This document shows, piece by piece, positions 558 through 62,210 of a DNA stretch of 64,000 nucleotides (position 1 is the stretch's first letter; every line of letters begins with the position of its first letter). Under the pieces are notes generated by a model. It ran no database searches, had not been told where the DNA came from, and saw nothing but the letters and a program-made list of their open reading frames with translations. The stretch covers positions 36,474 through 100,473 of the IMG/VR virus record IMGVR_UViG_2851976983_000001. One strand, written 5' to 3'. A program made the position numbers and the translations under genes. The stretch is from a virus (taxonomy: Duplodnaviria; Heunggongvirae; Uroviricota; Caudoviricetes).

Positions 558-739
558 CATCGTTGGTTTGCAAGACAGACCTTATGTAAGCAGTTTTAGT
601 AAAGCAGTCTCAGTTCAGTGTTATCTTCTGATTTCCCTTCTTCGTGAGTCTCCTCCTTAAGTGCCTAAGTAAGTCCCAATCTATACAGATCAAATTCTCG
701 CCGCACTATGTGGCTCACAAAATTAAGAAGGTAATATCT

Positions 740-955
740 ATGTCTAATAAAATGACTGGTTTAGTAAAATGGTTTAACTCTGATAAAGGCTTTGGCTTTA
801 TTTCTCCTGCTGATGGCAGTAAAGATGTTTTTGTACATTTTTCGGCAATTCAGAGTAATAATTTCCGCACTTTGGAAGAAGGCCAGCAGGTCGAATTCTC
901 TATCGAGAATGGGGCTAAAGGCCCAGCAGCAGCAAATGTCGTTGCTCTAAGCTGA
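740..955 (+). CDS. csp: cold-shock protein, CspA family
   Basis: [23 protein letters not shown]...VFVHFSAIQ with RNP1/RNP2-like motifs; start refined to the internal ATG at 740 within ORF 644..955. Confidence 0.9.
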
Positions 956-1230
956 TTCAACGCTGATGATCCTCATTTCTACAATAACGAAGACGGTGTA
1001 AGCCTGAGTGGATAGATTTGTAGGATTGTACAAGTTGAATAAATTAGCATGGTAAGGCCATGCTAATTAAATCGACACAACGGCCAGTTTATTCCATAAA
1101 AGTGAATTGCCCATTGTGGCGAAATGCGGGGTTGCCGCATGAATAGTCAAAGGCAGAAGCTAACTGCCGGCATGGCAAAACAAAGTGCGTAAGAGGAGTG
1201 ACTTCCTCAACAAGCGCCATAATTCTTTAT

Positions 1231-4200: not shown

Positions 4201-4777
4201 GGACGTTAATCTGGTCGTAGAATGGGGTAGGGTGCGGATAAACCACACTATAGAAGTTGTCTTTTCCACCCGCTGTAATCAGTGTGCTTATGATTTTTGC
4301 AAAATCGTTGCGTTGGAACACGCTACCGATGTCGGAAGTAAGCAGGATGATGTTACCTTTGGCATATGTAGAAACCAACTGTTCGAGCGAGAGACGCGGT
4401 ACAAAGTAGAACTGTTCTCGTGTGTTGGCCGCCGTCATTAGTTCGCAGATGTCGCGATATCCTTTCTCATTTTTAATTAGAGCGGTAAACGAGTAGTTAC
4501 GTCCTCGCTCCAATGATTCCATACATCCCTTAGACTCTTTAGCAAGTTTAGCCCGGTGCTCGTATGTGGGATCATCAACGATGTTTAGTTTCACACCACA
4601 AATAACCGCCATGTCGTCACCAGCGGCACGTTGTAGTGGAATAACGCTCGCAATATTCATGCTATCTGCTGAAATTACAGCGGTGTAGCCAGCTTCTCTG
4701 GCAATCTTCACCGCGTTTTCTGCTTTTAAAGCCGACTCCCCAAGTGAGAAGTCAGTTCGAACCATCAGTGCCTTCAT
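1259..4777 (-). CDS. dnaE: DNA polymerase III alpha subunit (DnaE-type replicative polymerase)
   Basis: 1172 aa; N-terminal PHP domain; core GFCGYFLMVRDLMNHSRETGIPVGPGRGSSAGSLVAWCIGITNVDP typical of Pol III alpha. Confidence 0.9.
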   Translation of the reverse strand: MKALMVRTDFSLGESALKAENAVKIAREAGYTAVISADSMNIASVIPLQRAAGDDMAVICGVKLNIVDDPTYEHRAKLAKESKGCMESLERGRNYSFTALIKNEKGYRDICELMTAANTREQFYFVPRLSLEQLVSTYAKGNIILLTSDIGSVFQRNDFAKIISTLITAGGKDNFYSVVYPHPTPFYDQINVRAMKVASALKIEPVAFYPAYYESIDDADIKDIAHMVTNNIKIDQPHRLRIPHQRDNAINGRRHLLEALKAFSVRMDVPVTAAMASTTQDSIIDACTWRWHELPPALPKMADDEPATLMKLAVAGLRKRLTTKEFGYTPPASENRVYVERLKYEMDTLTRLGFCGYFLMVRDLMNHSRETGIPVGPGRGSSAGSLVAWCIGITNVDPIRHGLLFERFINPERLDLPDADLDFSQARRHEVIEYLNERYGEDYVAGIPNFTYLGAASALRDTARIYGVDAADMAVSKEFKNMEDDSLSLEELREQLASLDKYATKNPEAFKAACKLQSLMRGFGRHAAGMIVAGVPLVERTPVELRGNARCIAFDKRYCEAMGLIKLDVLGLATLDLLDSAKRYIKESTGEDINLDAIPLDDRKVLDGFAAGYTQGVFQLESGPMRKLLKDLGGGIEPMSFKTVVATTALFRPGPIQSGMLDDYVSVAKGFMTPTSLHPVLDELTSETNGVILYQEQTMNATRLLAGFTMAEADGVRSAIGKKNMEKMRSMGEKFVIQAQAGWIDVELENGAIQRIHRAEHFKCEDGTLRTVEEALEHGVKLPMPVVRVTTSHPGLSETKAKEIWTAFEKNGAYQFNKSHSVAYSLISYQSMWLKTHYPAEFFAAALTILGEDKHQGLVKDALTYGIRVLPPDVNVSSNRIEIRTLEDGSQALYAPFSAVKGCSENGCQAIMRAREKVGGKFESVAQFDEAVEKRACNSRVRESLHKVGAFASIEPGSLPATDPERLRDQAELMGNLIIDAVKASRPFEMNPKRSAEINVLMTRMAAEMGLGEELIRPTIGIKPKIMIILDNANGNDARTGYFMENGYDDFKAKLLTVGDLRMGDLYVTGVCKKVKDKEKDYTKDEIGQFTDFMREEINLVRPTYILTCGSRSTALFNNKSKPSDLIGRKEYFPELDATVFYGFNPNILYFRPEEGERLEAILADIAETINK

Positions 4778-8397: not shown

Positions 8398-8495
8398 GGC
8401 TAATCCTTTGTTATGAAAACAAATTATTTACTAGTGTGTTTAATGTAGCACTGCGCGAACAGGGAACTAAGCCATTCGCGCAGGGAGAAGAGGGG

Positions 8496-8959: not shown

Positions 8960-9346
8960 ATGTCTGATAACAAGATTGAATTTATAGAAAGTCGCTACGC
9001 TGCTTTTATCGCAGGGTTGATTGAATCCTCACCTATGAGCCAGGCCCAGATAGCCAAAACAATTGGGTATAAAAACGCCAACAACCTTTCTTTAATTAAA
9101 AGTGGCAAAATTCCTTTGCCTATCGATAAGGTTCGTCCGCTGGCGCTGGCGCTGGGTATTGAGCCTAGTCGTCTTATGATGATGGTGCTGGAAGAACGCC
9201 AACCTGAACTCGCAGCATTTTTGTACAAAGAAGGCACCGCTCCTCTTAACGAGGACGAAAAACAGGTTCTTGCTGCATATAACGAGCGATTCGGTAAAGA
9301 GAAAGGCGCATCACAAAAGGTTGTTGAGGCCATAAAGTCTCTATGA
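8960..9346 (+). CDS. helix-turn-helix DNA-binding protein (XRE/Cro-CI-like regulator)
   Basis: SQAQIAKTIGYKNANNLSLIKSGK HTH-like segment; convergent with and overlapping the integrase 3' end. Confidence 0.5.
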   Translation: MSDNKIEFIESRYAAFIAGLIESSPMSQAQIAKTIGYKNANNLSLIKSGKIPLPIDKVRPLALALGIEPSRLMMMVLEERQPELAAFLYKEGTAPLNEDEKQVLAAYNERFGKEKGASQKVVEAIKSL

Positions 9347-10444
9347 AAAATTTACACGAATAAGCTCTGTTGATAGACGATCTCCCTTGAATTTGTGGTC
9401 AATTTCGTCTAAATCCGGTTGATCTACGATTGATGCGATGTACGTCGAGAAACTTTCTAAGGCGTCTCGCATCTCGTCCATATAATCGTGCCGGTCGTAG
9501 ACCCGATCTATCCCCTCAAGACTGTGGTTCATGATTTTGCGTGATACCTCCTGGCTTATGCCTAATGCTGGGAAGTAACTACGCGCAGTACGGCGCAAAT
9601 CTCGGGGTGTAAATGGCTCAAGCTCCATCAGTTCTGGTCGTTCCAGAATACGACGTAATGCCTGGGCTATTGCCACTTTAGACATAGGAAGGTCTTTCCC
9701 GATTTTTTTATTCGAAGGCACGAGCCACTGGCTGTCTTTACCGTATTCGAACAACTCTTCAATGCATGTGCGCATTAATGTGCTTAAAGGCAGCGAATGC
9801 TCACGTGCTGACTTGTTTCTCTTGCCTTGATTCCAAACTCCACGCTTAAGATTGAACTCACTTTTTTTAGCCCGCAGTACTTCGTCAGGTCGTCTTGCTG
9901 ATACAAGACACAGTCTGGCCGCCCATTTTGTACCAGCGCACACATTGAAGTAGTCCCATATATTCCAGAACACCCATACCTCTGCGTCGGTCAGCTTCCG
10001 CTCGCGAGGTGTGGGCTTTGCGCCACCGGCAACTTTGTTTAGTGACATATCGTTTAGCGGTGACACGTCTATCATCCCCTGGAAGGCGCACCAGCTAAGG
10101 AACTGCTTCATCAGAGAGAAAACGCGGCGGCCCATAACAATTTTGCCATCCAATATTAGAGGGTTGACCAGTTGGTTCACCATGAACCTATTAATGTCAC
10201 TTACTTTTACATCAGCAATGTGCGGCAAAACATGTATCAAAATACAATGAACAGCGATCTCTGGCCGACGTCTGGTTATCAGCAGAGATAAGCGAGTGAA
10301 TAACATGAATGCGTCCGAGAATCTCATATCATTGCTAACCTGCGAGATCATAACGGCCTGCATTTGAGATGCTCTTTCGAGATACTCAATCGCCTCTTTT
10401 GAGGTGTTCTCCGCAGCGCGTGCTCTGTCAAAGCTATTTTTCAT
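9341..10444 (-). CDS. int: tyrosine recombinase / phage integrase
   Basis: C-terminal catalytic signature FTPRDLRRTARSY...IMNHSLEG...VYDRHDY (R...HxxR...Y). Confidence 0.85.
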   Translation of the reverse strand: MKNSFDRARAAENTSKEAIEYLERASQMQAVMISQVSNDMRFSDAFMLFTRLSLLITRRRPEIAVHCILIHVLPHIADVKVSDINRFMVNQLVNPLILDGKIVMGRRVFSLMKQFLSWCAFQGMIDVSPLNDMSLNKVAGGAKPTPRERKLTDAEVWVFWNIWDYFNVCAGTKWAARLCLVSARRPDEVLRAKKSEFNLKRGVWNQGKRNKSAREHSLPLSTLMRTCIEELFEYGKDSQWLVPSNKKIGKDLPMSKVAIAQALRRILERPELMELEPFTPRDLRRTARSYFPALGISQEVSRKIMNHSLEGIDRVYDRHDYMDEMRDALESFSTYIASIVDQPDLDEIDHKFKGDRLSTELIRVNFS

Positions 10445-10542
10445 ATGACAATCACCGAGTTACGCCGATTCACTGTATAAGTAAACAGTATATTAGGCAT
10501 AGATTCTTATAGGATCAAGAGTAAAAGTAACTCATTTTCAGC

Positions 10543-10575
10543 AATGATTCCATACATAGTAGGTATGGAATCATT
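10543..10575. promoter_or_regulatory. 13-bp inverted-repeat operator-like site upstream of the integrase
   Basis: AATGATTCCATAC-N7-GTATGGAATCATT perfect inverted repeat ~100 bp upstream of the int start; half-site copies at 15560..15577 and 16582..16598. Confidence 0.45.
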
Positions 10576-10655
10576 TAGATGTTGTTTTTTGAATTTTAAG
10601 GGAAACAGGAGTGAGTTTGGTGGGAATAAAAAACGGCTCCTGTGAGCCGTTAAAA

Positions 10656-14573: not shown

Positions 14574-14656
14574 CTTCCTTGTTCCTTAGAGTGTTCGGAG
14601 AAGATCCAAATAGCGTCAACCAAATGCCGCTGAATTCATATGTACGACCGCAAAGC

Positions 14657-14680
14657 AAAATGGGGCCGAAGCCCCATTTT
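14657..14680. terminator. bidirectional terminator hairpin
   Basis: AAAATGGGGCCGAAGCCCCATTTT; same GGGGCCGAAGCCCC core as 15141..15164. Confidence 0.55.
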
Positions 14681-14835
14681 ATTCAAACTATTTATTCTGC
14701 TGGCACCTAAACAAAAGGTAAAGCATAAGCAGAGATAGGACTTGGCTATGCAGAGGAGCCTGAATAAATGTCGTTAGCATTTCACTCATCGAAAGATACC
14801 TCTATTCGATTAATCAAATGCGCTACGAGACCAAA

Positions 14836-14969: not shown

Positions 14970-15140
14970 GCGTAGTAGTCACTTTCCCATTGCACTTCCC
15001 TCTCGTTGTATGAAAACTACGGATTGTAGCATTTCCAATAGCTTGTTTATAATTTGCATAGCATAGCACAACCCACATGCGCATGTAGGACTGACAGGAA
15101 TTGCCCCACAACGTATAAAAAAGTTTGTGATTATCAAAGA

Positions 15141-15164
15141 AAAAAGGGGCCGAAGCCCCTTTGG
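15141..15164. terminator. bidirectional terminator hairpin
   Basis: AAAAAGGGGCCGAAGCCCCTTTGG. Confidence 0.5.
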
Positions 15165-15236
15165 ATTATGGTTTGCGCTAAAAAAGTGTTGCTACGATGC
15201 TAAGAAGCAATGGTTAAGAACGTCTGCCGTGTCTAT

Positions 15237-15319
15237 CACAGCGCTGAACGGTTTGGCGACATTTGCGGAGTCTTTCCGTTCGGACGGTGGTGGCGAACTC
15301 CAAACCGTTCAGCGCTGTG
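15237..15319. repeat. long perfect inverted repeat (20-bp arms) abutting the tRNA 3' end
   Basis: CACAGCGCTGAACGGTTTGG ... CCAAACCGTTCAGCGCTGTG with ~43-nt loop. Confidence 0.6.
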
Positions 15320-15320
15320 T

Positions 15321-15395
15321 TGGCGATGGTGGGTGGACTCGAACCACCGACCAGTTGATTAACAGTCAACCGCTCTACCACTGAGCTACACCATC
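15321..15395 (-). tRNA. tRNA-Asn (anticodon GUU)
   Basis: Minus-strand sequence GATGGTG-TA-GCTC-AGTGGTA-GAGC-G-GTTGA-CTGTTAA-TCAAC-TGGTC-GGTGG-TTCGAGT-CCACC-CACCATC-G-CCA folds as a cloverleaf with encoded CCA; 75 nt. Confidence 0.85.
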
Positions 15396-15834
15396 ATATT
15401 TCGCGGCGGTACTTGTTGATGGACAACCAGGCAACCAGGAACTTTCCCGCAACTTGCACTTTACGTTAGTGCCAGACGAGGCTTGTGGCGCGCTCACATA
15501 GAGCAAAGATCTGGAATCCTTCTCGGTGGTTGACGGCCGCCAGATTCTTCGATCTTATTGGATGTATGGAATCATCCATGTTGTGAAACCAGGGGCTACA
15601 TAGGCAACAATGATTTCACCAGAGGGTTAAAGAATCCTGCTTTCACAACGTTGAGGCCGCTGAACCGATTTATGTTCGACCCAACATATTGATCAGTCAC
15701 TACAGCTCTGTGGAATCACCTGTATGATTAAAAGAAAAACAGTGACCTCAACGTTGTGCGCTGGCTAACCAAGCCAGCCGGGTTACGTCGCCGCTTTTAA
15801 CCCAAGATTAAACGACATAAGTAATGGAAATGAC

Positions 15835-15949
15835 GTAACAGGATGGACGGTCAGCTGGCTGAAACCGGGATGATGGAATGGAATGAGGAAACCAACCGTC
15901 CATCCTGTTACTTCATCGAATAGGGCATGGGTGGTGCAACATGCCCTAT
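15835..15949. repeat. two consecutive strong hairpins in an ORF-free region
   Basis: 16-bp perfect stem GTAACAGGATGGACGG/CCGTCCATCCTGTTAC (15835..15911) then 10-bp stem ATAGGGCATG/CATGCCCTAT (15920..15949). Confidence 0.5.
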
Positions 15950-16449: not shown

Positions 16450-16598
16450 TTCCGCACTCCCGTCTCGTGAACAACCCGATACAGACGCTTACCGATGCGA
16501 AGCGTTTTGGTTTCCAGTTCCTGCCTGACCATATCGCGACAGATACTGAAGCCGAGGGCCACGCCCCCAGCAAAAGATAATAGGATGTATGGAATCAT
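16446..16598 (-). CDS. small membrane protein (50 aa) missing from the ORF track
   Basis: Hand translation MIPYILLSFAGGVALGFSICRDMVRQELETKTLRIGKRLYRVVHETGVRK; start and stop overlap both neighbours. Confidence 0.4.
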   Translation of the reverse strand: MIPYILLSFAGGVALGFSICRDMVRQELETKTLRIGKRLYRVVHETGVRK

Positions 16599-23508: not shown

Positions 23509-23551
23509 GTGCTTTCCTTTGTTTTTTAAACAAATTGTTTTCTAGTATTAG

Positions 23552-24292
23552 TTAATTAGATAGGGGATCAATAAACCGCCGTGCTTCTTCCAGTTCTTCT
23601 GGAAAGTGGGCGGAAATAAGGCGCTCTGGAACGATTTCCATTAGCCAGATAGCGGAGAAAATTGCGCGTATGCGCTTGCTGCGGGGGATGGTGCGTAAAC
23701 GCTCCAGAATCCACTCAAAATAGCTTTCCTGGATCGGGTTGAACTGCATGTCTCCCATATGCTTAAAGCTAACCAGAGAGTCATCCAGACGGGTTGTTGC
23801 GCGTCTGGCTAATTTCTCTTCAAATATCTCAATCAGTTCTGGCTGCCATAAATGCTGTGGGCGCGGCAGCTTGTCCCACAGCCGTCGTGCAGCTGCGGAA
23901 AGAACGGTGGAGATAAAGTAGTCGTATGAGCAGCAATAGCGGTCAGCAAACTGGCGTGCTTTCCATAGAGACGTTTTATTGGCAGTCGACAACTCCTGAT
24001 AAGGCAGGCGTTTTAACCCGGTGGTGAACGGAGCTGTTTCAAAGTGTTCTCGACCGTGCGTCAGCATGATATTTGAGTACTGACGTTTGTATGCCTCCGT
24101 AAAAAGACAGGTGGCCATGAGAGGATGCATGTCGCGGTAATCAAACCACTTCGTCTCGAAGAGTTCAGCCTCGTCTTTACAGCGCGACAAACCAATGTTT
24201 TCAGCGACCCACTTGTCCATAACAGCGGTATTCCACTCTGTCATGAAGTCGTACTGGTCGTTGTCGATGGTATCGAAAAAGATTTGGCTCAT
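23552..24292 (-). CDS. hypothetical protein (possible helicase loader by position)
   Basis: 246-aa ORF immediately upstream of the helicase; GATAAGTAAGTAA motif ~20 nt upstream of the ATG. Confidence 0.45.
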   Translation of the reverse strand: MSQIFFDTIDNDQYDFMTEWNTAVMDKWVAENIGLSRCKDEAELFETKWFDYRDMHPLMATCLFTEAYKRQYSNIMLTHGREHFETAPFTTGLKRLPYQELSTANKTSLWKARQFADRYCCSYDYFISTVLSAAARRLWDKLPRPQHLWQPELIEIFEEKLARRATTRLDDSLVSFKHMGDMQFNPIQESYFEWILERLRTIPRSKRIRAIFSAIWLMEIVPERLISAHFPEELEEARRFIDPLSN

Positions 24293-24408
24293 GTGGCTCG
24301 CCTGGTAGGTAGTTACTTACTTATCACAATGAGCGAATGATAGCGACTGGTGGCAGTTTTTGGAAGTGGAAACGGAAGGGAGTTGTTCTGGTGGTGTCTT
24401 TTAAAAGA

Positions 24409-24463
24409 CCTGCTTCCGTATATATTTAATAAGTTACTTATTATTTATATATACAGAAGCAGG
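24409..24463. repeat. 55-bp palindromic element, copy A
   Basis: CCTGCTTCCGTATATATTTAATAAGTTACTTATTATTTATATATACAGAAGCAGG; near-identical copy at 61865..61919. Confidence 0.8.
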
Positions 24464-24574
24464 CATAACTTGTCGTCTTAGACGCCCAGAAGCTCTACAC
24501 TTTGAGCCTGTTAAATTGATTAAAAACTTATGTGTAAAATAGAACGCATTAGTCAGTAGCTAAGAGATGCAATA

Positions 24575-25342
24575 ATGGACGATTTATCGGTATACGCGAG
24601 ATCATTGGATAAGGCTAAATACTATGTTTACTGTCTCTATGATACAGAAGACAAGATGAAAAGACCGTTTTACATAGGAAAAGGCAAATCGACTCGTTGT
24701 CTCGATCACATCAAGTATCCCGATGACTCTCCCAAATCCATGCGGATCAAAGAACTTTTGGCTAATAAAAAATTAGGCATAGATATACTTCGTCATGGTA
24801 TGGATGAAACCACAGCCAAACTTGTTGAGGCGACATGCATCGACCTTATGGGGGTCGGAGAGCTTACGAATAAGGTTCGAGGAAGTGGTTCCATGATGGG
24901 CAGAATATCACTGGACGCCTACCATCACTTAGTGCTGCAAGAGGAAACTGAAATTGCTCCTGAGCACGCCGGTCTTGCCTTCCTGCTAAACAGCACCTAC
25001 AAGTCAGGAATGTCCGCTCTGGCATTATATGAAGCTACGCGTGGCGTATGGGCAAAGGTTCCAAGAGACGAGAATCTCAAATATGCCTACGCTACATATG
25101 GTGGGCTGATAATGGAAGTTTATCAGATTGAATGCTGGGTCAAAGCCGGTTCTCAGCAGTACTTTACAAGGGATATAGCTCTTGGCCCCGACACAAAACG
25201 TTATGAATTTGTTGGCAGAATAGCCGATGAGCATATTAGAAAACTGTATGTAGGCAAATTAATCAAGAAGCCACCAAGCTACGGTAGCCCTTTTGTGAAG
25301 GTTGGGGTGGTTAGGACTGAACATAGTGTTAGCGCGGCATAA
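24575..25342 (+). CDS. GIY-YIG nuclease-domain protein (homing-endonuclease-like)
   Basis: N-terminal YYVYCLYD...PFYIGKGKSTRCLDH resembles the GIY-(x10-13)-YIG...R core; plus strand, own terminator. Confidence 0.45.
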   Translation: MDDLSVYARSLDKAKYYVYCLYDTEDKMKRPFYIGKGKSTRCLDHIKYPDDSPKSMRIKELLANKKLGIDILRHGMDETTAKLVEATCIDLMGVGELTNKVRGSGSMMGRISLDAYHHLVLQEETEIAPEHAGLAFLLNSTYKSGMSALALYEATRGVWAKVPRDENLKYAYATYGGLIMEVYQIECWVKAGSQQYFTRDIALGPDTKRYEFVGRIADEHIRKLYVGKLIKKPPSYGSPFVKVGVVRTEHSVSAA

Positions 25343-25359: not shown

Positions 25360-25396
25360 TGCATTGGCGCAACGTACGCGCCAATGCATGATTTTT
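25360..25396 (+). terminator. rho-independent terminator of the GIY-YIG gene
   Basis: TGCATTGGCGC-AACGTAC-GCGCCAATGCA followed by TGATTTTT. Confidence 0.6.
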
Positions 25397-25754
25397 AACC
25401 TTTTTTCATCAACTCTCGTTTGATTTCATCGGTACGCATCGTGACATCGGCAGCTGTGATCGCCTCGTTAAGTTTCACGATGTCCTCGATTTCCTGCGGT
25501 GACTTCTCTGCCAGATGGAAAATGGCTGCGCGAATCACGTCTGAACGGGTGAACTTCTCGAAGCGAGGGATGAACTTCATCATCTCCAGCAGTTCGAAGT
25601 ATTCGTCCTCCAGTGACATTGTGCGGCTTTTAATTTTCTCTTTGCCACGAGTCGGGCGTCCCTGTGGTCTGACTGGTTGGCGCAAAGGAGTTGTGTTCTT
25701 AGCCGGTGCATCAGGCTCTTTGCGCTTTGCTAGGTCACCCATTTTCATGGACAT
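25395..25754 (-). CDS. small partition/centromere-binding protein candidate (ParG/ParB-like)
   Basis: 119 aa, basic N-terminus; translationally coupled to the ParA gene (ATGA overlap). Confidence 0.4.
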   Translation of the reverse strand: MSMKMGDLAKRKEPDAPAKNTTPLRQPVRPQGRPTRGKEKIKSRTMSLEDEYFELLEMMKFIPRFEKFTRSDVIRAAIFHLAEKSPQEIEDIVKLNEAITAADVTMRTDEIKRELMKKG

Positions 25755-26422
25755 TATTCTTCTTCCTCCAGACTCAACAGATAATCTACAAATTCTTCAA
25801 ACTCGGCTTCCGCCTTTTTGTCGCGCTCGCTACCGGTCATTTCAAAGATAGAACGACCAGACTCTTCCGCATCATCATAGACGTTGCGGTTATATAGATT
25901 GACTGGCGCAGACTCGATGCCAAACGTCTCAACAATCTCTTTAGCCGCCAGAATGCGAGACACTTGTGATGGCAAAGCCGGGCACTGGTTCATGACCGCG
26001 CGGACCTTCACTTTATCGTTTACATTACGAACATTGTCGATAATAGGATCGATGTCACGCAGAGATTTCAAATCACGACGCTTAGGACGAAGCGGGATAA
26101 TGATAACGTCGGCCATCAGCATCGCTTGTCGCTGAATTTCGGAGTCAAAGCCACCAGCATCTACCACTACATACTCAGCTCTACCCTGAAGCGATTTTAG
26201 GTGCTTAATGATGTCATCCTGAACGTATGCAAAAGGAATCAGCTCAAGGTCTTCGTTCTGTCGACGGTCTTCACACCAGCTCGTTGTCGTGCGCTGAATA
26301 TCTATATCGGTGATATAAACCTTCTTCTTCTTTTTGACTTTCAGGCAAACGGCAATTTGCTGGGCAACGGTGGATTTGCCAGGCCCGCCCTTTGTGCCGC
26401 CAACCACAAAGATCTTGGTCAT
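25754..26422 (-). CDS. parA: ParA-family partition ATPase
   Basis: Deviant Walker A VGGTKGGPGKST; 222 aa, typical of small type Ib ParA. Confidence 0.8.
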   Translation of the reverse strand: MTKIFVVGGTKGGPGKSTVAQQIAVCLKVKKKKKVYITDIDIQRTTTSWCEDRRQNEDLELIPFAYVQDDIIKHLKSLQGRAEYVVVDAGGFDSEIQRQAMLMADVIIIPLRPKRRDLKSLRDIDPIIDNVRNVNDKVKVRAVMNQCPALPSQVSRILAAKEIVETFGIESAPVNLYNRNVYDDAEESGRSIFEMTGSERDKKAEAEFEEFVDYLLSLEEEE

Positions 26423-26568
26423 TGGAGAGTTCCCTTTGCGTATATAATTATCGTCTGAAACAACTTGTTTTCTTATATGTGATATAGCCTAAATGCCTAC
26501 GGCTGTGGTGTAAAGGTTAAATGGTAGGTGCTGCCTTAGAATTTTTAGGCGAGAATCAATGGCTGTTA

Positions 26569-39229: not shown

Positions 39230-41174
<1,945 letters not shown>

Positions 41175-41199
41175 ACTTCCTGAGAAAGAGGTAAACAGG

Positions 41200-41522
41200 A
41201 TGACTAAAAATACTCGTTTTTCCCCCGAAGTCCGTCAACGGGCAGTCCGTATGGTTCTGGAAAGTCAGGATGAATATGACTCACAGTGGGCGGCAATTTG
41301 TTCCATTGCCCCAAAGATTGGCTGTACGCCGGAGACTCTGCGTGTCTGGGTTCGCCAGCATGAGCGGGATACCGGGGGCGGTGATGGTGGGCTCACCAGC
41401 GCTGAACGTCAGCGTCTGAAAGAGCTGGAACGTGAAAATCGTGAACTGCGCCGCAGTAACGATATCCTTCGCCAGGCTTCCGCTTATTTTGCGAAGGCGG
41501 AGTTCGACCGCCTCTGGAAGAA

Positions 41523-41526
<4 letters not shown>
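41200..41526 (+). CDS. IS3-family transposase OrfA
   Basis: [57 protein letters not shown] (HTH + leucine zipper). Confidence 0.9.
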
Positions 41527-42551
<1,025 letters not shown>

Positions 42552-61748: not shown

Positions 61749-61864
61749 AGATCCCTCTAAAACACACAGAGCGCGTCCATGCGCTCTAAAACAACTTGTT
61801 TACTGCATCTGCTAACCAACTTGTTTTCTGGGGTGTTTAATTAGGTCTGGCATGTCTTACGAAG

Positions 61865-61919
61865 CCTGCTTCCGTATATATTTAATAAGTTACTTATTAT
61901 TTATATATACAGATGCAGG
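61865..61919. repeat. 55-bp palindromic element, copy B
   Basis: CCTGCTTCCGTATATATTTAATAAGTTACTTATTATTTATATATACAGATGCAGG; one mismatch relative to copy A. Confidence 0.8.
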
Positions 61920-61943
61920 TCTTTAAATAAGCTCCCAGACCGA

Positions 61944-62210
61944 TTACATCACCAGTAACTTCGCTTTGGCTCGACCTAAAGTGGTTAACCCAAGAGTTCG
62001 GCGGTGATAGCGATTGTCACTGCGTTGGCGCGTATGCCCTTTCTCCACCAGCCCCTTTTTTATCAGAGCGCGAATTGAGAACTGGATACTTTGCTTGGTT
62101 GTCTTGTACGGCAAAACTTCAAGCAATTCGTCCAGGTCAAGTAGATGACCTCGCTCATAACCGAGATTGAGCGTTTTGATGATGTCCTTTTGTTTATCGG
62201 TTAACGTCAT
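61944..62210 (-). CDS. small DNA-binding protein (winged-helix-like)
   Basis: 88 aa, basic; ...KQSIQFSIRALIKKGLVEK... recognition-helix-like segment. Confidence 0.4.
   Translation of the reverse strand: MTLTDKQKDIIKTLNLGYERGHLLDLDELLEVLPYKTTKQSIQFSIRALIKKGLVEKGHTRQRSDNRYHRRTLGLTTLGRAKAKLLVM

Follow-up and report, generated by a model that had tools for sequence, protein, structure and literature searches.

The window, the whole stretch of 64,000 nt analysed here, is an Escherichia coli phage-plasmid of the SSU5/pHCM2 type. It contains two sites of a 55-bp palindrome, termed copies C and B (Table 1). An earlier note on this DNA had described a near-perfect palindrome occurring twice. Both sites were confirmed, whereas the arms proved imperfect and the count of two holds for the window only. 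The single A/T difference between the two sites lies where that note had placed it, and the gene context was as described: a 246-aa gene, which adjoins a DnaB-like helicase gene, and a GIY-YIG gene surround copy C, and an 88-aa gene (p88) and the small-terminase gene (terS) surround copy B. Judged from the residues, the 88-aa protein is probably winged-helix-like; Pfam assigned it to no family. The 119-aa partner of ParA reads as a ribbon-helix-helix-like protein. ParB_N domains were confirmed in two proteins encoded upstream of copy B, in the same operon as p88. Cyrano, SSU5 and pJN2-26 either lack the GIY-YIG gene or have other DNA in its place. The putative promoter downstream of copy C was read from an alignment and lies below the threshold of the consensus scan; its equivalent in the Pseudomonas phage hairong is TAGACA-N17-TATCAT. 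The terminator-like hairpin before terS is conserved with compensatory changes, and an analogous hairpin precedes terS in Nickievirus. The D5 motif is a regulatory repeat different from the palindrome and much more abundant.

Table 1. Palindrome copies and neighbouring features in the window (positions in nt; strand as annotated).
Feature	Position	Strand	Remarks
246-aa gene	23552..24292	-	phrog_2500, function unknown; first gene downstream of copy C
Putative sigma70-like promoter, TTCCAA-N17-TATCAT	24337..24365	-	43 nt downstream of copy C; 246-aa/helicase/primase block
Outer arm TTCTGG, copy C	24386..24391		partner CCAGAA at 24486-24491
T-rich tail TCTTTTAAAAGA	24397..24408	-	directly 3' of copy C on the sense strand
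Palindrome copy C	24409..24463	- (sense)	55 bp; 116 nt upstream of the ATG of the 246-aa gene heading the helicase-primase block
Outer arm CCAGAA, copy C	24486..24491		partner TTCTGG at 24386-24391
GIY-YIG gene	24575..25342	+	variable cargo between par operon and copy C
parA (222 aa) and 119-aa partner, putatively ribbon-helix-helix-like	25395..26422	-	lysogenically expressed operon; transcripts run toward copy C
Small-terminase candidate, 210 aa	61116..61748	-	first gene downstream of copy B; name from the Cyrano record
Canonical terminator-like hairpin and T run	61757..61788	-	separate from the palindrome; immediately before the terS ribosome-binding site
Two D5 motifs (GAAAACAAnTTGTTT-like)	61785..61829	-	between copy B and the terS terminator hairpin
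Outer arm GGTCTGG, copy B	61844..61850		partner CCCAGACC at 61934-61941
Palindrome copy B	61865..61919	-	55 bp; between the stop of the 88-aa gene and the terS candidate; 116 nt upstream of the terS ATG
Outer arm CCCAGACC, copy B	61934..61941		directly after the stop codon of the 88-aa gene
88-aa gene (p88), putatively winged-helix-like	61944..62210	-	last gene upstream of copy B

The palindrome is composed of nearly invariant 17-bp arms (CCTGCNTCYGTATATAT), an AT-rich, variable centre and, outermost, a TCTGG/CCAGA inverted repeat. Its fold comprises a 17-bp outer helix, an asymmetric 3x1 internal loop, a 7-bp inner helix and a 3-nt loop. The outer helix contains one mismatch or G.T in copy C and two imperfect positions in copy B, a mismatch and either another mismatch or a G.T. 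About 35 bp of core sequence consist almost entirely of A+T, with GC clamps, and fold readily as DNA (-15.2 and -11.9 kcal/mol for the two window copies). Sense-strand RNA folds reach -41.7 and -44.2 kcal/mol, with z-scores of -6.8 and -8.0 versus shuffles, and the sense hairpin is more stable than the antisense hairpin in both copies. Together with its outer-arm extension the palindrome is the dominant predicted fold of the window region homologous to the gap between CYRAN_30 and CYRAN_31 in Cyrano. Four upstream contexts with nothing else in common all have a TCTGG-like arm at a distance of about 15-25 nt (three times TCTGG, once TCTTGG), and short CCAGA-type repeats flank each copy. The asymmetric internal loop caused a gapless palindrome finder to overlook B and C, and a self-reverse-complement local alignment was used instead. 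A whole-genome scan of minimum free energies was dominated by GC-rich coding hairpins and of no use for the palindrome. Within the window, the 13-nt core ATAAGTTACTTAT occurs at the two palindrome sites only (four strand-hits versus 0.06 expected from shuffles). The longest alignment between the two copies is 72 nt at 88%. With similarity confined to about 55-72 bp, the copies are not parts of a longer duplication, a reading that the earlier note had named as its own refutation.

Several known elements were compared with this anatomy and rejected. Tyrosine-recombinase core sites have inverted arms of 11-13 bp, a spacer of 6-8 bp and, usually, a position beside the recombinase gene. A lox-, dif- or FRT-type site is excluded on geometry, as the palindrome has 17-bp arms, a 21-bp spacer and a distance of at least 14 kb to the integrase gene. 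A separate 13-7-13 palindrome belongs to the integrase (10541-10577). The arms of XerCD dif, compared by eye, did not fit those of the palindrome. A T4 late promoter was considered for TATAAATA, found on the sense strand of both copies and five times in the window versus 1.3 expected, but three of the five lie on the opposite strand elsewhere; to our knowledge, no gp55-like factor is known for such a promoter here. No convincing match to a MotA box (TGCTT), or to the IHF, Fis and DnaA consensus sequences, was seen by eye. In Rfam 15 nothing reached the gathering threshold at the palindromes, and the sub-threshold matches were eukaryotic miRNA-precursor hairpins only. Neither a description of the palindrome nor its arm sequences were found in the literature searched.

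Complete relatives possess three copies (A, B and C), the third of which lies outside the window. They are located at 13.4, 45.6 and 75.1 kb around the circle and rank among the four best palindromes of a 108-kb relative. In PhiR41_1, SSU5 and pJN2-26 all three are direct repeats, co-oriented with the genes and placed in gaps between co-directional genes; each copy precedes the next start codon by 96-118 nt. Copy C is syntenic in PhiR41_1, SSU5, pJN2-26 and Cyrano. The position of copy B is kept in 44 fetched loci, and the full B palindrome aligns over 100 bp in PhiR41_1. The flanks assigned 97 of 98 further fetched instances to one of the contexts A, B and C. The palindrome was found in 252 of 5,426 complete E. 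coli genomes, with no chromosomal copy among them, and in 797 PLSDB plasmids from Klebsiella, Escherichia, Enterobacter, Yersinia and Salmonella. The Yersinia plasmids are presumably of the pMT1 type and those of Salmonella of the pHCM2 type. A scan of species-representative genomes with a two-arm pattern yielded copies on Kluyvera and Yersinia contigs of 92-109 kb, the size of phage-plasmids, and one copy on a 30-kb contig of a metagenome bin labelled Bacillota. Two Kluyvera copies, the Yersinia copy and the metagenome-bin copy were confirmed to lie beside terS/terL homologues. Thus, neither the E. coli genomes nor the two-arm scan of species representatives revealed a copy outside this element family.

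More distant phages retain part of the arrangement. Pseudomonas Nickievirus has palindromes at the syntenic positions B and C, two of the three. A Rhizobium phage has one at the terS position and none at the replication genes. In the Stenotrophomonas phage BUCTxx99 no palindrome was seen upstream of terS. Nickieviruses have been reported as lytic, and their records list no ParA. The location of one copy immediately upstream of the small-terminase gene, recorded in the earlier note, is conserved from Rhizobium to E. coli phages, and its view of a conserved, non-random cis element was borne out. That distant lytic phages keep the position points to an ancient trait of genome organisation in this superfamily.

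A recombination linker or selfish repeat, i.e. a PeSL- or MITE-like boundary sequence that promotes modular exchange and has no dedicated regulatory role, is very improbable. Homology between lineages does break exactly at copy C, upstream of which four unrelated contexts and the variable GIY-YIG cargo are found, and the two arm alleles with their frequent hybrids are expected from recombination or conversion between copies. Across genera, however, neither the three syntenic positions of the copies nor their orientation has changed, and two of the positions persist even in the distant Pseudomonas phages. Target-site duplications are missing, and none of the 5,426 E. coli genomes has a copy on the chromosome.

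The flanks are about 79% identical or unalignable, compared with nearly invariant arms. Two arm alleles exist, and hybrid palindromes with two uncompensated mismatches are common. Double changes that keep the arms complementary were observed in pJN2-26 (T5/A51 and T8/A48) and in L007 (G6/C50 and T9/A47). The arms of Nickievirus differ among phages yet are complementary, e.g. CCAACCCACCCCT/AGGGGTGGGTTGG in hairong, and copies B and C have different outer arms within one Nickievirus genome. The centre varies freely, as between copy C of Cyrano and that of the window. A covariation test on the outer 13 bp gave a weak signal: three pairs had changed on both sides, 24 of 500 shuffles gave at least as many, and the overall score equalled the shuffle mean. 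G.U-type and C.A-type mismatches are about equally frequent, so that no clear strand signature emerges. Short arm motifs recur in very distant phages (Rhizobium, TTCCGG..CTCCCTTC..GAAGGGAG..CCGGAA; nickie, CCTTGCTTTCC; hairong, CCTGCTTTCCCC; enterobacterial, CCTGCTTCC), although these cross-phylum similarities are short and were spotted by eye.

Arms of such constancy are accommodated by an operator or roadblock, which is a close rival of the terminator reading given below and a possible, somewhat less probable explanation. The palindrome would be bound by a phage-encoded, symmetric DNA-binding protein that co-ordinately silences, insulates or activates three blocks. In contrast to the diverging flanks, the 17-bp arms vary across genera at positions 6 and 9 only. 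Separate reading of each arm would explain why mismatched hybrids are tolerated, and the weak covariation and the recurrence of arm motifs in Rhizobium phage, nickie and hairong fit as well. One and the same sequence occupies three fixed inter-block sites, as would a stoperator. Candidate binding proteins conserved in the family along with the palindrome are p88, whose gene or a p88-like one is a neighbour of copy B in every relative examined, and the pair of ParB_N-domain proteins from its operon. A FljA-like protein is a further candidate DNA-binding protein. The protein would act either as a stoperator-like roadblock to elongation or, in the manner of KorB at OB, on promoters about 20-100 bp downstream. 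In Nickievirus, palindrome B borders immediately on a TATAAT hexamer lacking a -35 element. Against an operator, the proteins are candidates only, and a 17-bp arm lacking internal symmetry, with the arms 38 bp apart from centre to centre, is awkward for a simple dimer. The consensus scan showed no sigma70-like promoter overlapping or adjoining the palindrome in the window, and the distance to the putative downstream promoter differs between B and C. The differing outer arms of B and C in one Nickievirus genome also argue against a single arm-reading protein. A more far-reaching version is rather improbable: the palindromes may be loading or binding sites for a conserved phage protein, e.g. the ParB_N pair or p88, which would define three independently silenced, chromatin-like domains. 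Such a KorB- or stoperator-like insulator would be ancestral to the superfamily of siphoviruses of about 110 kb in Rhizobium, Pseudomonas and Enterobacteriaceae and would decide between plasmid and lytic phage behaviour.

The sense strand is rich in T directly downstream of copies A and C. Of 21 loci with copy C, 20 have 5-7 T among the first 9 nt (TCTTTTAA in the window, TTTTTTT in pJN2-26), and of 32 loci with copy A, 31 have at least 4 T in 9 nt (CTGTTTT, CTTTTT). The antisense tails are poorer in T at most A and C loci. Copy B (CTTCGTAAG; 2-4 T in 9 nt) and the palindromes of Nickievirus are devoid of a T tract. In Cyrano, some 30 nt separate the stop codon of the preceding gene from the start of copy C. 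RNA-seq of the LF82/Cyrano lysogen gave log2 values of 5.7-10.4 for CYRAN_30 and of 2.3-4.2 for the next gene, CYRAN_31, which is close to the table floor of 2.32 (PMC9928086, supplementary table). This corresponds to a drop of roughly 9- to 200-fold across copy C, at gene-level resolution over the 193-nt gap; a protein roadblock, or RNase III cleavage with subsequent decay, would give the same picture. The data are uninformative at A and B because the genes upstream of these copies are silent. A consensus scan detected no sigma70-type hexamer pairs in or beside either window copy, and the gene downstream of C is near the RNA-seq floor in the lysogen; both results speak against the bidirectional promoter that the earlier note had offered.

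The best evidence points to a function that was not among the suggestions of the earlier note. Sense T tracts at two of three copies, the placement after the last gene of the upstream block and the RNA drop at C suggest, with a probability of about 0.4, that the palindrome is a family-specific, hairpin-based transcriptional boundary (insulator) or terminator element. The uniform orientation of the copies with the genes, the stable sense-strand folds, the double changes that preserve pairing, the complementary arms of Nickievirus and the freely varying centre speak for it as well. The phage-plasmid of about 108 kb is transcribed almost wholly in one direction, and the copies lie at the joins of co-directional blocks: A between a nucleotide-metabolism/replication block and an accessory-early block, B between the block running from ParB-like genes to p88 and the terminase-structural block, and C between the structural-lysis-par block and the helicase-primase-polymerase block. 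Polymerase arriving from the upstream block would transcribe the copy into an RNA hairpin of about 24 bp, which the TCTGG/CCAGA arms can lengthen to about 40 bp. At A and C, hairpin and U tract would constitute an intrinsic terminator, the hairpin itself causing the stop. It may also shield the 3' end of the upstream message, and the next block would rely on its own promoter within the conserved leader of about 100 nt. Copies A and B probably act like C; at B, the second, canonical terminator hairpin before terS may back up or replace termination at the palindrome. Several observations count against a terminator. Copy B, the most deeply conserved position, has no U tract and needs a separate terminator; the Nickievirus palindromes have no U tract either; the arm sequence is conserved far beyond the need of a terminator; hybrids with uncompensated mismatches are common, covariation is weak and a clear strand signature is missing; and the stem of 17 and 7 bp is AT-rich with an internal loop. 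Intrinsic terminators typically have a short, GC-rich stem of 5-14 bp and a loop of 3-8 nt. A consensus terminator scan did not call the palindrome. For the operator, the RNA drop at C is equally suitable.

RNA cleavage is the next alternative and an unlikely one. In read-through RNA, host RNase III would cut the interrupted, AU-rich hairpin of about 24 bp (about 40 bp when extended) and uncouple the stabilities of the upstream and downstream messages. The length of the hairpin and its internal loop fit known substrates, i.e. interrupted double-stranded RNA of at least about 20 bp between cistrons, and the hairpin is intercistronic and co-oriented with transcription. A U tract is not required, so that copy B and Nickievirus also fit. 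The weak Rfam likeness is to generic pre-miRNA-type hairpins only, and the RNA drop at C is compatible. Cleavage is putative, however, and the arms are conserved beyond what RNase III needs, with weak covariation. A 100-fold drop further requires cleavage plus efficient decay of the downstream fragment.

A site for lytic replication or recombination, slightly less likely again, would involve melting of the palindrome or extrusion of a cruciform, either as a (multi-)origin or as a resolvase-cut entry for recombination-dependent replication. It would be driven by the helicase, primase, Pol III alpha, RecA-like and RuvC-like proteins of the element. Copy C lies directly upstream of the genes for the 246-aa protein, the DnaB-like helicase and the primase; the A+T core can fold as DNA; three copies are spread round the circle, with CCAGA-type repeats beside each; and RuvC-like and RecA-like genes are annotated in relatives. 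The replication site of the earlier note nevertheless gained no positive evidence. The cumulative GC skew has no inflection at any copy, its profile being monotonic and uninformative. The plasmid replicon is a separate RepA elsewhere, neither an initiator protein nor an iteron array is evident, and the Rhizobium relative has the copy at terS and none at its replication genes. Block boundaries fully account for the positions of the copies.

Packaging, the other cis function that the earlier note had named, is as improbable as the recombination linker. Copy B would be the site of recognition and cleavage by the terminase (cos/pac), with A and C as cryptic duplicates. It is two-fold symmetric and adjoins the terminase genes, preceding terS by 116 nt, and its position is kept from Rhizobium to E. 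coli phages. The linear GenBank record of SSU5 is cut inside copy B, at 37|18. The large terminase of Nickievirus has been reported to cluster with 3'-cos phages (PMC8537276), but Nickievirus Nican01 was assigned long direct terminal repeats by PhageTerm (PMC11256456). Three full copies per genome, outer arms included, fit badly with a unique cleavage site. The corresponding cut in the Cyrano record is offset by one base from that of SSU5; this record is assumed to have been oriented to match SSU5. In several of the IMG/VR loci fetched, the sequence on one side of the palindrome is no longer than about 20-150 nt. If such locus ends are contig ends, assemblies break at the three-copy repeat, and the SSU5 cut may then be an assembly artefact. 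The literature searched contained no mapping of the SSU5 termini. In a PDB sequence search the best match of the large terminase was 4zni, titled "phage terminase large subunit", which is not diagnostic of the packaging mode; the entry is presumably that of Thermus phage P74-26. The small terminase had no match in the same search. An RNase III site, an origin, a cos site and a recombination linker are thus all less likely than the boundary or terminator element.

Phage-plasmids of the SSU5/pHCM2 type are common and can carry resistance genes. Copy C sits exactly where the expressed par genes adjoin the silent replication genes, and a boundary element in three copies offers a testable handle on how about 100 kb of co-directional lytic genes are silenced amid expressed plasmid-maintenance genes. 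The palindrome is in addition a diagnostic signature for the phage-plasmid family. Provided that the ends of the IMG/VR loci are contig ends, its three copies are a likely cause of short-read assembly breaks in these plasmids.

Known systems share single features with the palindrome. The telRL site of N15, a 56-bp protelomerase target, is a perfect palindrome present in a single copy on a linear, hairpin-ended plasmid. A size of about 55 bp, the two-fold symmetry and one copy beside the terminase genes recall telRL and cosN of the lambda type. A telRL-like target is excluded, since the palindrome is imperfect, three copies exist and the records of PhiR41_1 and pJN2-26 are circular; no protelomerase annotation occurs in the stretches covered, namely the whole of PhiR41_1, the whole of SSU5 and the first 100 kb of pJN2-26. 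The promoter-early stem-loops (PeSL) of T4-type phages and lambdoid boundary sequences are likewise repeated stem-loops at module borders and mosaic breakpoints, whereas the palindrome is limited to three syntenically fixed copies and the repeat itself has no associated promoter. The KorB-OB system of RK2 and the centromere sites of N15 have in common with it scattered palindromes, variable promoter distances and element-encoded proteins of the ParB family. OB and parS sites measure 13-16 bp. In contrast to these systems, the DNA-binding domain of the ParB_N proteins is putative here, and palindromes are also found in Nickieviruses.

Stoperators of L5 and C1 operators of P1 are asymmetric sites of 13-17 bp, with about 17-30 per genome. 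Like the palindrome, they are dispersed over the prophage, intergenic, in one orientation to transcription and associated with a transcription stop in the lysogen; three 55-bp palindromes with candidate binders only differ from them, and the D5 motif is closer to this class. The early RNA of T7 contains intercistronic RNase III sites, and the Bacillus phage SP82 three near-identical ones. These are several related, long, interrupted hairpins between cistrons that need no U tract, as in the present family. The arms of the palindrome are more strictly conserved, copies also occur upstream of promoters, and cleavage is putative. The terminators tR' of lambda and T-phi of T7 are intrinsic (Rho-independent) and insulate operons from one another. 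Compared with them, the stem of the palindrome is long (17 and 7 bp, up to about 40 bp), AT-rich and near-identical in three copies and across genera, and copy B and the Nickievirus homologues have no T tract. Common to both are a hairpin with a sense T tract (at A and C), a position after the last gene of a block and the fall in RNA at C.

The palindrome CCTGCTTCCGTATATATTTAATAAGTTACTTATTATTTATATATACAGA(A/T)GCAGG is a real and strongly conserved cis element. The two window copies are direct repeats with one base different, and the 13-nt core has no other site in the window (0.06 matches expected by chance). Both positions reported in the earlier note, which described a 55-bp near-perfect palindrome present twice, 37 kb apart, were confirmed. 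The copies are not parts of a longer duplication, a possibility raised there, since their likeness is gone within ~72 nt (88% identity over 72 nt). The term palindrome holds, but near-perfect is generous. The outer helix of 17 bp is disturbed once in copy 1, by a mismatch or G.T, and at two imperfect positions in copy 2. It is followed by an asymmetric 3x1 internal loop, an inner helix of 7 bp (AATAAGT/ACTTATT) and a terminal loop of 3 nt.

The window shares 98-99.8% identity with 'Escherichia phage CMS-2020a' and PhiR41_1; Cyrano (pLF82) and Salmonella phage SSU5 are relatives. This kinship identifies it, on sequence grounds, as 64 kb of a ~108-kb SSU5/pHCM2-type phage-plasmid. The palindrome occurs in 797 PLSDB plasmids (Klebsiella 313, Escherichia 234, Enterobacter 92, Yersinia 62, Salmonella 49, others) and in 252 of 5,426 complete E. 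coli genomes, plasmid-borne every time. A two-arm pattern, run against species-representative genomes, yielded copies only on phage-plasmid-sized contigs (92-109 kb) of Kluyvera and Yersinia, apart from a single one on a 30-kb contig from a metagenome bin, labelled Bacillota. Homologues of terS/terL adjoin the copies from Yersinia and the metagenome bin and two of those from Kluyvera.

Complete relatives carry three copies each, designated A, B and C. All are oriented like the almost uniformly co-directional genes, and 96-118 nt separate the palindrome end from the next start codon at every copy. Flanks assigned 98 palindromes from the loci fetched by then to B (44), A (32) and C (21); one with too little flank was left unplaced. 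In a gapped self-reverse-complement scan of the 108 kb of PhiR41_1, B ranked first, extending to 100 bp, C joint second and A fourth. Second rank is shared with C by a 13-7-13 lox-like site next to the integrase gene.

Palindrome copies and other features (window positions unless a record is named)
Feature	Record	Position	Strand	Remark
Copy A	PhiR41_1	13435		Dam-type methylase gene / 76-aa gene; outside window
Copy A	SSU5	78304
Copy A	pJN2-26	15270
Copy B	window (copy 2)	61865-61919	-	88-aa winged-helix-like gene (p88) / small-terminase candidate (terS)
Copy B	PhiR41_1	45582
Copy B	SSU5	across record ends
Copy B	pJN2-26	38533
Copy B parts in two fetched loci	SSU5 (NC_018843)	L003 1-18; L004 3964-4000
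Copy C	window (copy 1)	24409-24463	-	par operon and variable cargo / 246-aa, helicase and primase genes
Copy C	PhiR41_1	75115
Copy C	SSU5	33458
Copy C	pJN2-26	about 74846
Copy C	nickie	41058-41134		77 bp; best palindrome of this genome
Putative weak sigma70-like promoter	window	24337-24365	-	TTCCAA-N17-TATCAT
GIY-YIG (LEM-3-like) gene	window	24575-25342	+	beside C
119-aa protein	window	25395-25754	-	downstream of parA
Terminator hairpin and T run	window	61757-61788	-	directly before terS ribosome-binding site
D5 repeat GAAAACAAnTTGTTT	window	8417-8429; 23528-23540; 26458-26470; 61789-61801; 61814-61826
Tyrosine-integrase gene	window	9341-10444	-
Lox/FRT-like 13-7-13 palindrome	window	10541-10577		AATGATTCCATAC-ATAGTAG-GTATGGAATCATT; ~100 nt upstream of integrase gene
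Further half-sites GTATGGAATCAT	window	4513-4524 (-); 15564-15575 (+); 16587-16598 (+)
Two large palindromes	window	15237-15319; 15830-15916		20-22-nt arms, 43-nt spacers
tRNA	window	15324-15395	-
Terminator-like hairpins GGGGCCGAAGCCCC	window	14651-14683; 15135-15167		duplicated
cspA thermoregulator 5'-UTR	window	562-980	+	Rfam
IS3-family insertion	window	41146-42455		tail-gene region
25-nt inverted repeats	window	41146-41170; 42431-42455		of IS3-family insertion
ALIL frameshift pseudoknot	window	41481-41597		Rfam; inside IS3-family insertion
CYRAN_43	Cyrano (OV696614)	40268-40822
CYRAN_81	Cyrano (OV696614)	78657-78791

The arms are nearly invariant (consensus CCTGC[T>G,A]TC[C/T]GTATATAT). 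They enclose an AT-rich, variable centre of 19-23 bp, in which any nucleotide is possible as central base; copy C of Cyrano has a wholly different centre. An outer inverted repeat surrounds every copy: read on the sense strand, (G/T)TCTGG lies 13-22 nt upstream and CCAGA(C/A) 14-20 nt downstream. The DNA upstream of C comprises four unrelated sequences by lineage and retains a TCTGG-like arm (TCTGG in three, TCTTGG in the fourth), which suggests a functional unit of ~100 bp. Two arm alleles, CCTGCTTCCG and CCTGCGTCTG, form both matched and hybrid palindromes. Compensated double changes occur in pJN2-26 (T5/A51 and T8/A48) and in the fetched locus L007 (G6/C50 plus T9/A47). Covariation is weak: three pairs are altered on both sides, and 24 of 500 shuffles reach this count; the overall score does not exceed that of the shuffles.

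A consensus scan detected no sigma70-type hexamer pair in or beside either window copy. Downstream of C, the leader is strongly conserved; the putative promoter on this side has a hairong counterpart, TAGACA-N17-TATCAT. T-rich sense-strand tails follow A (at least 4 T in 9 nt at 31 of 32 loci) and C (5-7 T at 20 of 21 loci, TTTTTTT in pJN2-26), while B is followed by 2-4 T only. RNA-seq of the LF82 lysogen covers the genes on both sides of C. Upstream, log2 values are 5.2-10.1 for CYRAN_28 (parA), 6.3-10.8 for CYRAN_29 and 5.7-10.4 for CYRAN_30, the last gene before C. The first gene downstream, CYRAN_31 (246-aa homologue), has 2.3-4.2 (supplementary table, floor 2.32; PMC9928086). From CYRAN_30, CYRAN_31 and the floor, these gene-level data give an RNA drop of ~9- to 200-fold over a 193-nt gap (PMC9928086). 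The predicted fold of the homologous window region is dominated by the palindrome and its outer-arm extension. Nothing can be read from the lysogen for A and B, because the genes upstream are silent too.

Of the explanations weighed, a transcriptional boundary built on a hairpin fits best, with a probability of about 0.4. Such a function would account together for an orientation fixed with respect to the genes, the placement directly behind the gene that closes each upstream block, T tracts at two copies (A and C), a centre free to vary, long-range complementarity across three tiers and the RNA drop measured at C. Its weaknesses are that B, the most conserved position, and the Nickievirus palindromes have no T tract, that the arm sequence is conserved well beyond the needs of a terminator, and that mismatched hybrids are common and covariation is weak. 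Every one of them favours the chief alternative, an operator or roadblock bound by a protein, which is rated only slightly less probable. It would produce the same RNA-seq picture, and candidate binding proteins, the winged-helix-like p88 and ParB_N proteins, are encoded beside B. Processing by RNase III, a variant of the RNA reading for which T tracts are not needed, appears improbable.

Homologues of terS and of the 246-aa protein (26-33% identical) occur in ~110-kb siphoviruses of Pseudomonas (Nickievirus, reported as lytic; PMC8537276), Rhizobium, Stenotrophomonas and Xanthomonas, with the same gene order in those examined. Nickievirus has long palindromes at the positions matching B and C. 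The arms of nickie and hairong differ in sequence with complementarity kept, and the centre motif TTACAAG is retained. Their B arms (CCTTGCTTTCC in nickie, CCTGCTTTCCCC in hairong) resemble the enterobacterial CCTGCTTCC; a TATAAT hexamer abuts the B palindrome, and ACAAGTTGTT motifs similar to D5 lie inside it. In Rhizobium phage RHph_N1_10, a three-tier palindrome of 85 bp lies between a p88-like gene and terS, and the replication genes have none. The B-position palindromes in Nickievirus and the Rhizobium phage argue that the B position upstream of terS is ancient. C is common to enterobacterial elements and Nickievirus; among the genomes examined, A was seen only in enterobacterial elements.

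Between B and terS, two D5 motifs precede a canonical terminator hairpin that is conserved by compensatory changes and has an equivalent before terS in Nickievirus. With the small p88 gene directly before it, the late operon resembles lambda pR'-tR' in layout and appears to be under antitermination control. The linear SSU5 record is cut inside B (37 nt/18 nt), and that of Cyrano at the equivalent position, one base off; either an assembly break at a three-copy palindrome or a physical end would explain these cuts. Symmetric nicks in B would imply an overhang of ~19 nt. A cos site at B, as its position and the SSU5 cut might indicate, is very unlikely in view of three full copies and of the long terminal repeats reported in a Nickievirus (PMC11256456). 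In several fetched IMG/VR loci, moreover, one flank of the repeat is only ~20-150 nt long; if these locus ends are contig ends, assemblies break there. A replication origin or cruciform, for which support is circumstantial, is quite improbable; the GC skew has no inflection.

D5, with ~20 copies in PhiR41_1, is far more abundant than the palindrome. Its copies lie mostly 15-35 nt upstream of start codons, several ~13 nt after a -10-like hexamer. It looks like the main dispersed operator or 5'-UTR element of the phage-plasmid, and an encoded FljA-like protein (Pfam Flag1_repress) is a candidate partner. The 13-7-13 palindrome is a candidate resolution or recombination site, its half-site having five matches in the window versus 0.23 expected.

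The GIY-YIG gene belongs to the variable cargo upstream of C. Within ~10 bp of palindrome C, homology to Cyrano and CP054387 ends, and SSU5, pJN2-26 and Cyrano have unrelated genes in this slot, which is a mosaic hot spot. From its sequence, the 119-aa protein looks like a centromere-binding partner of a small type Ib ParA, of the ribbon-helix-helix (ParG-like) type; its annotation in Cyrano as 'RelE/ParE putative toxin' is probably wrong. In the published lysogen RNA-seq, CYRAN_43 exceeds background ~700-fold. Expression is also high for the tiny CYRAN_81, which lies ~300 nt downstream of where A is expected, in a gap between genes; both may be non-coding RNAs. The two large palindromes, the tRNA and the duplicated hairpins share a gene-poor stretch (~14.6-16.1 kb). 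The Rfam match to the cspA 5'-UTR indicates that the phage-plasmid carries a cold-shock gene.

No Rfam family was matched by the palindrome. In the literature searched, arm sequences were not printed and no description of the element was found. It falls outside the telRL, lox/dif and cosN classes, because defining features of these that were looked for are absent. Its kind, boundary hairpin or operator, is already known; a ~100-bp three-tier palindrome in triplicate, at positions conserved across a phage superfamily, is an unusual architecture. From general knowledge, its distribution resembles that of stoperators, P1 C1 operators and KorB sites, and the palindrome itself recalls the RNase III hairpins that recur in T7 and SP82. 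In its mode of action, the closest counterpart would be a terminator or insulator between operons.
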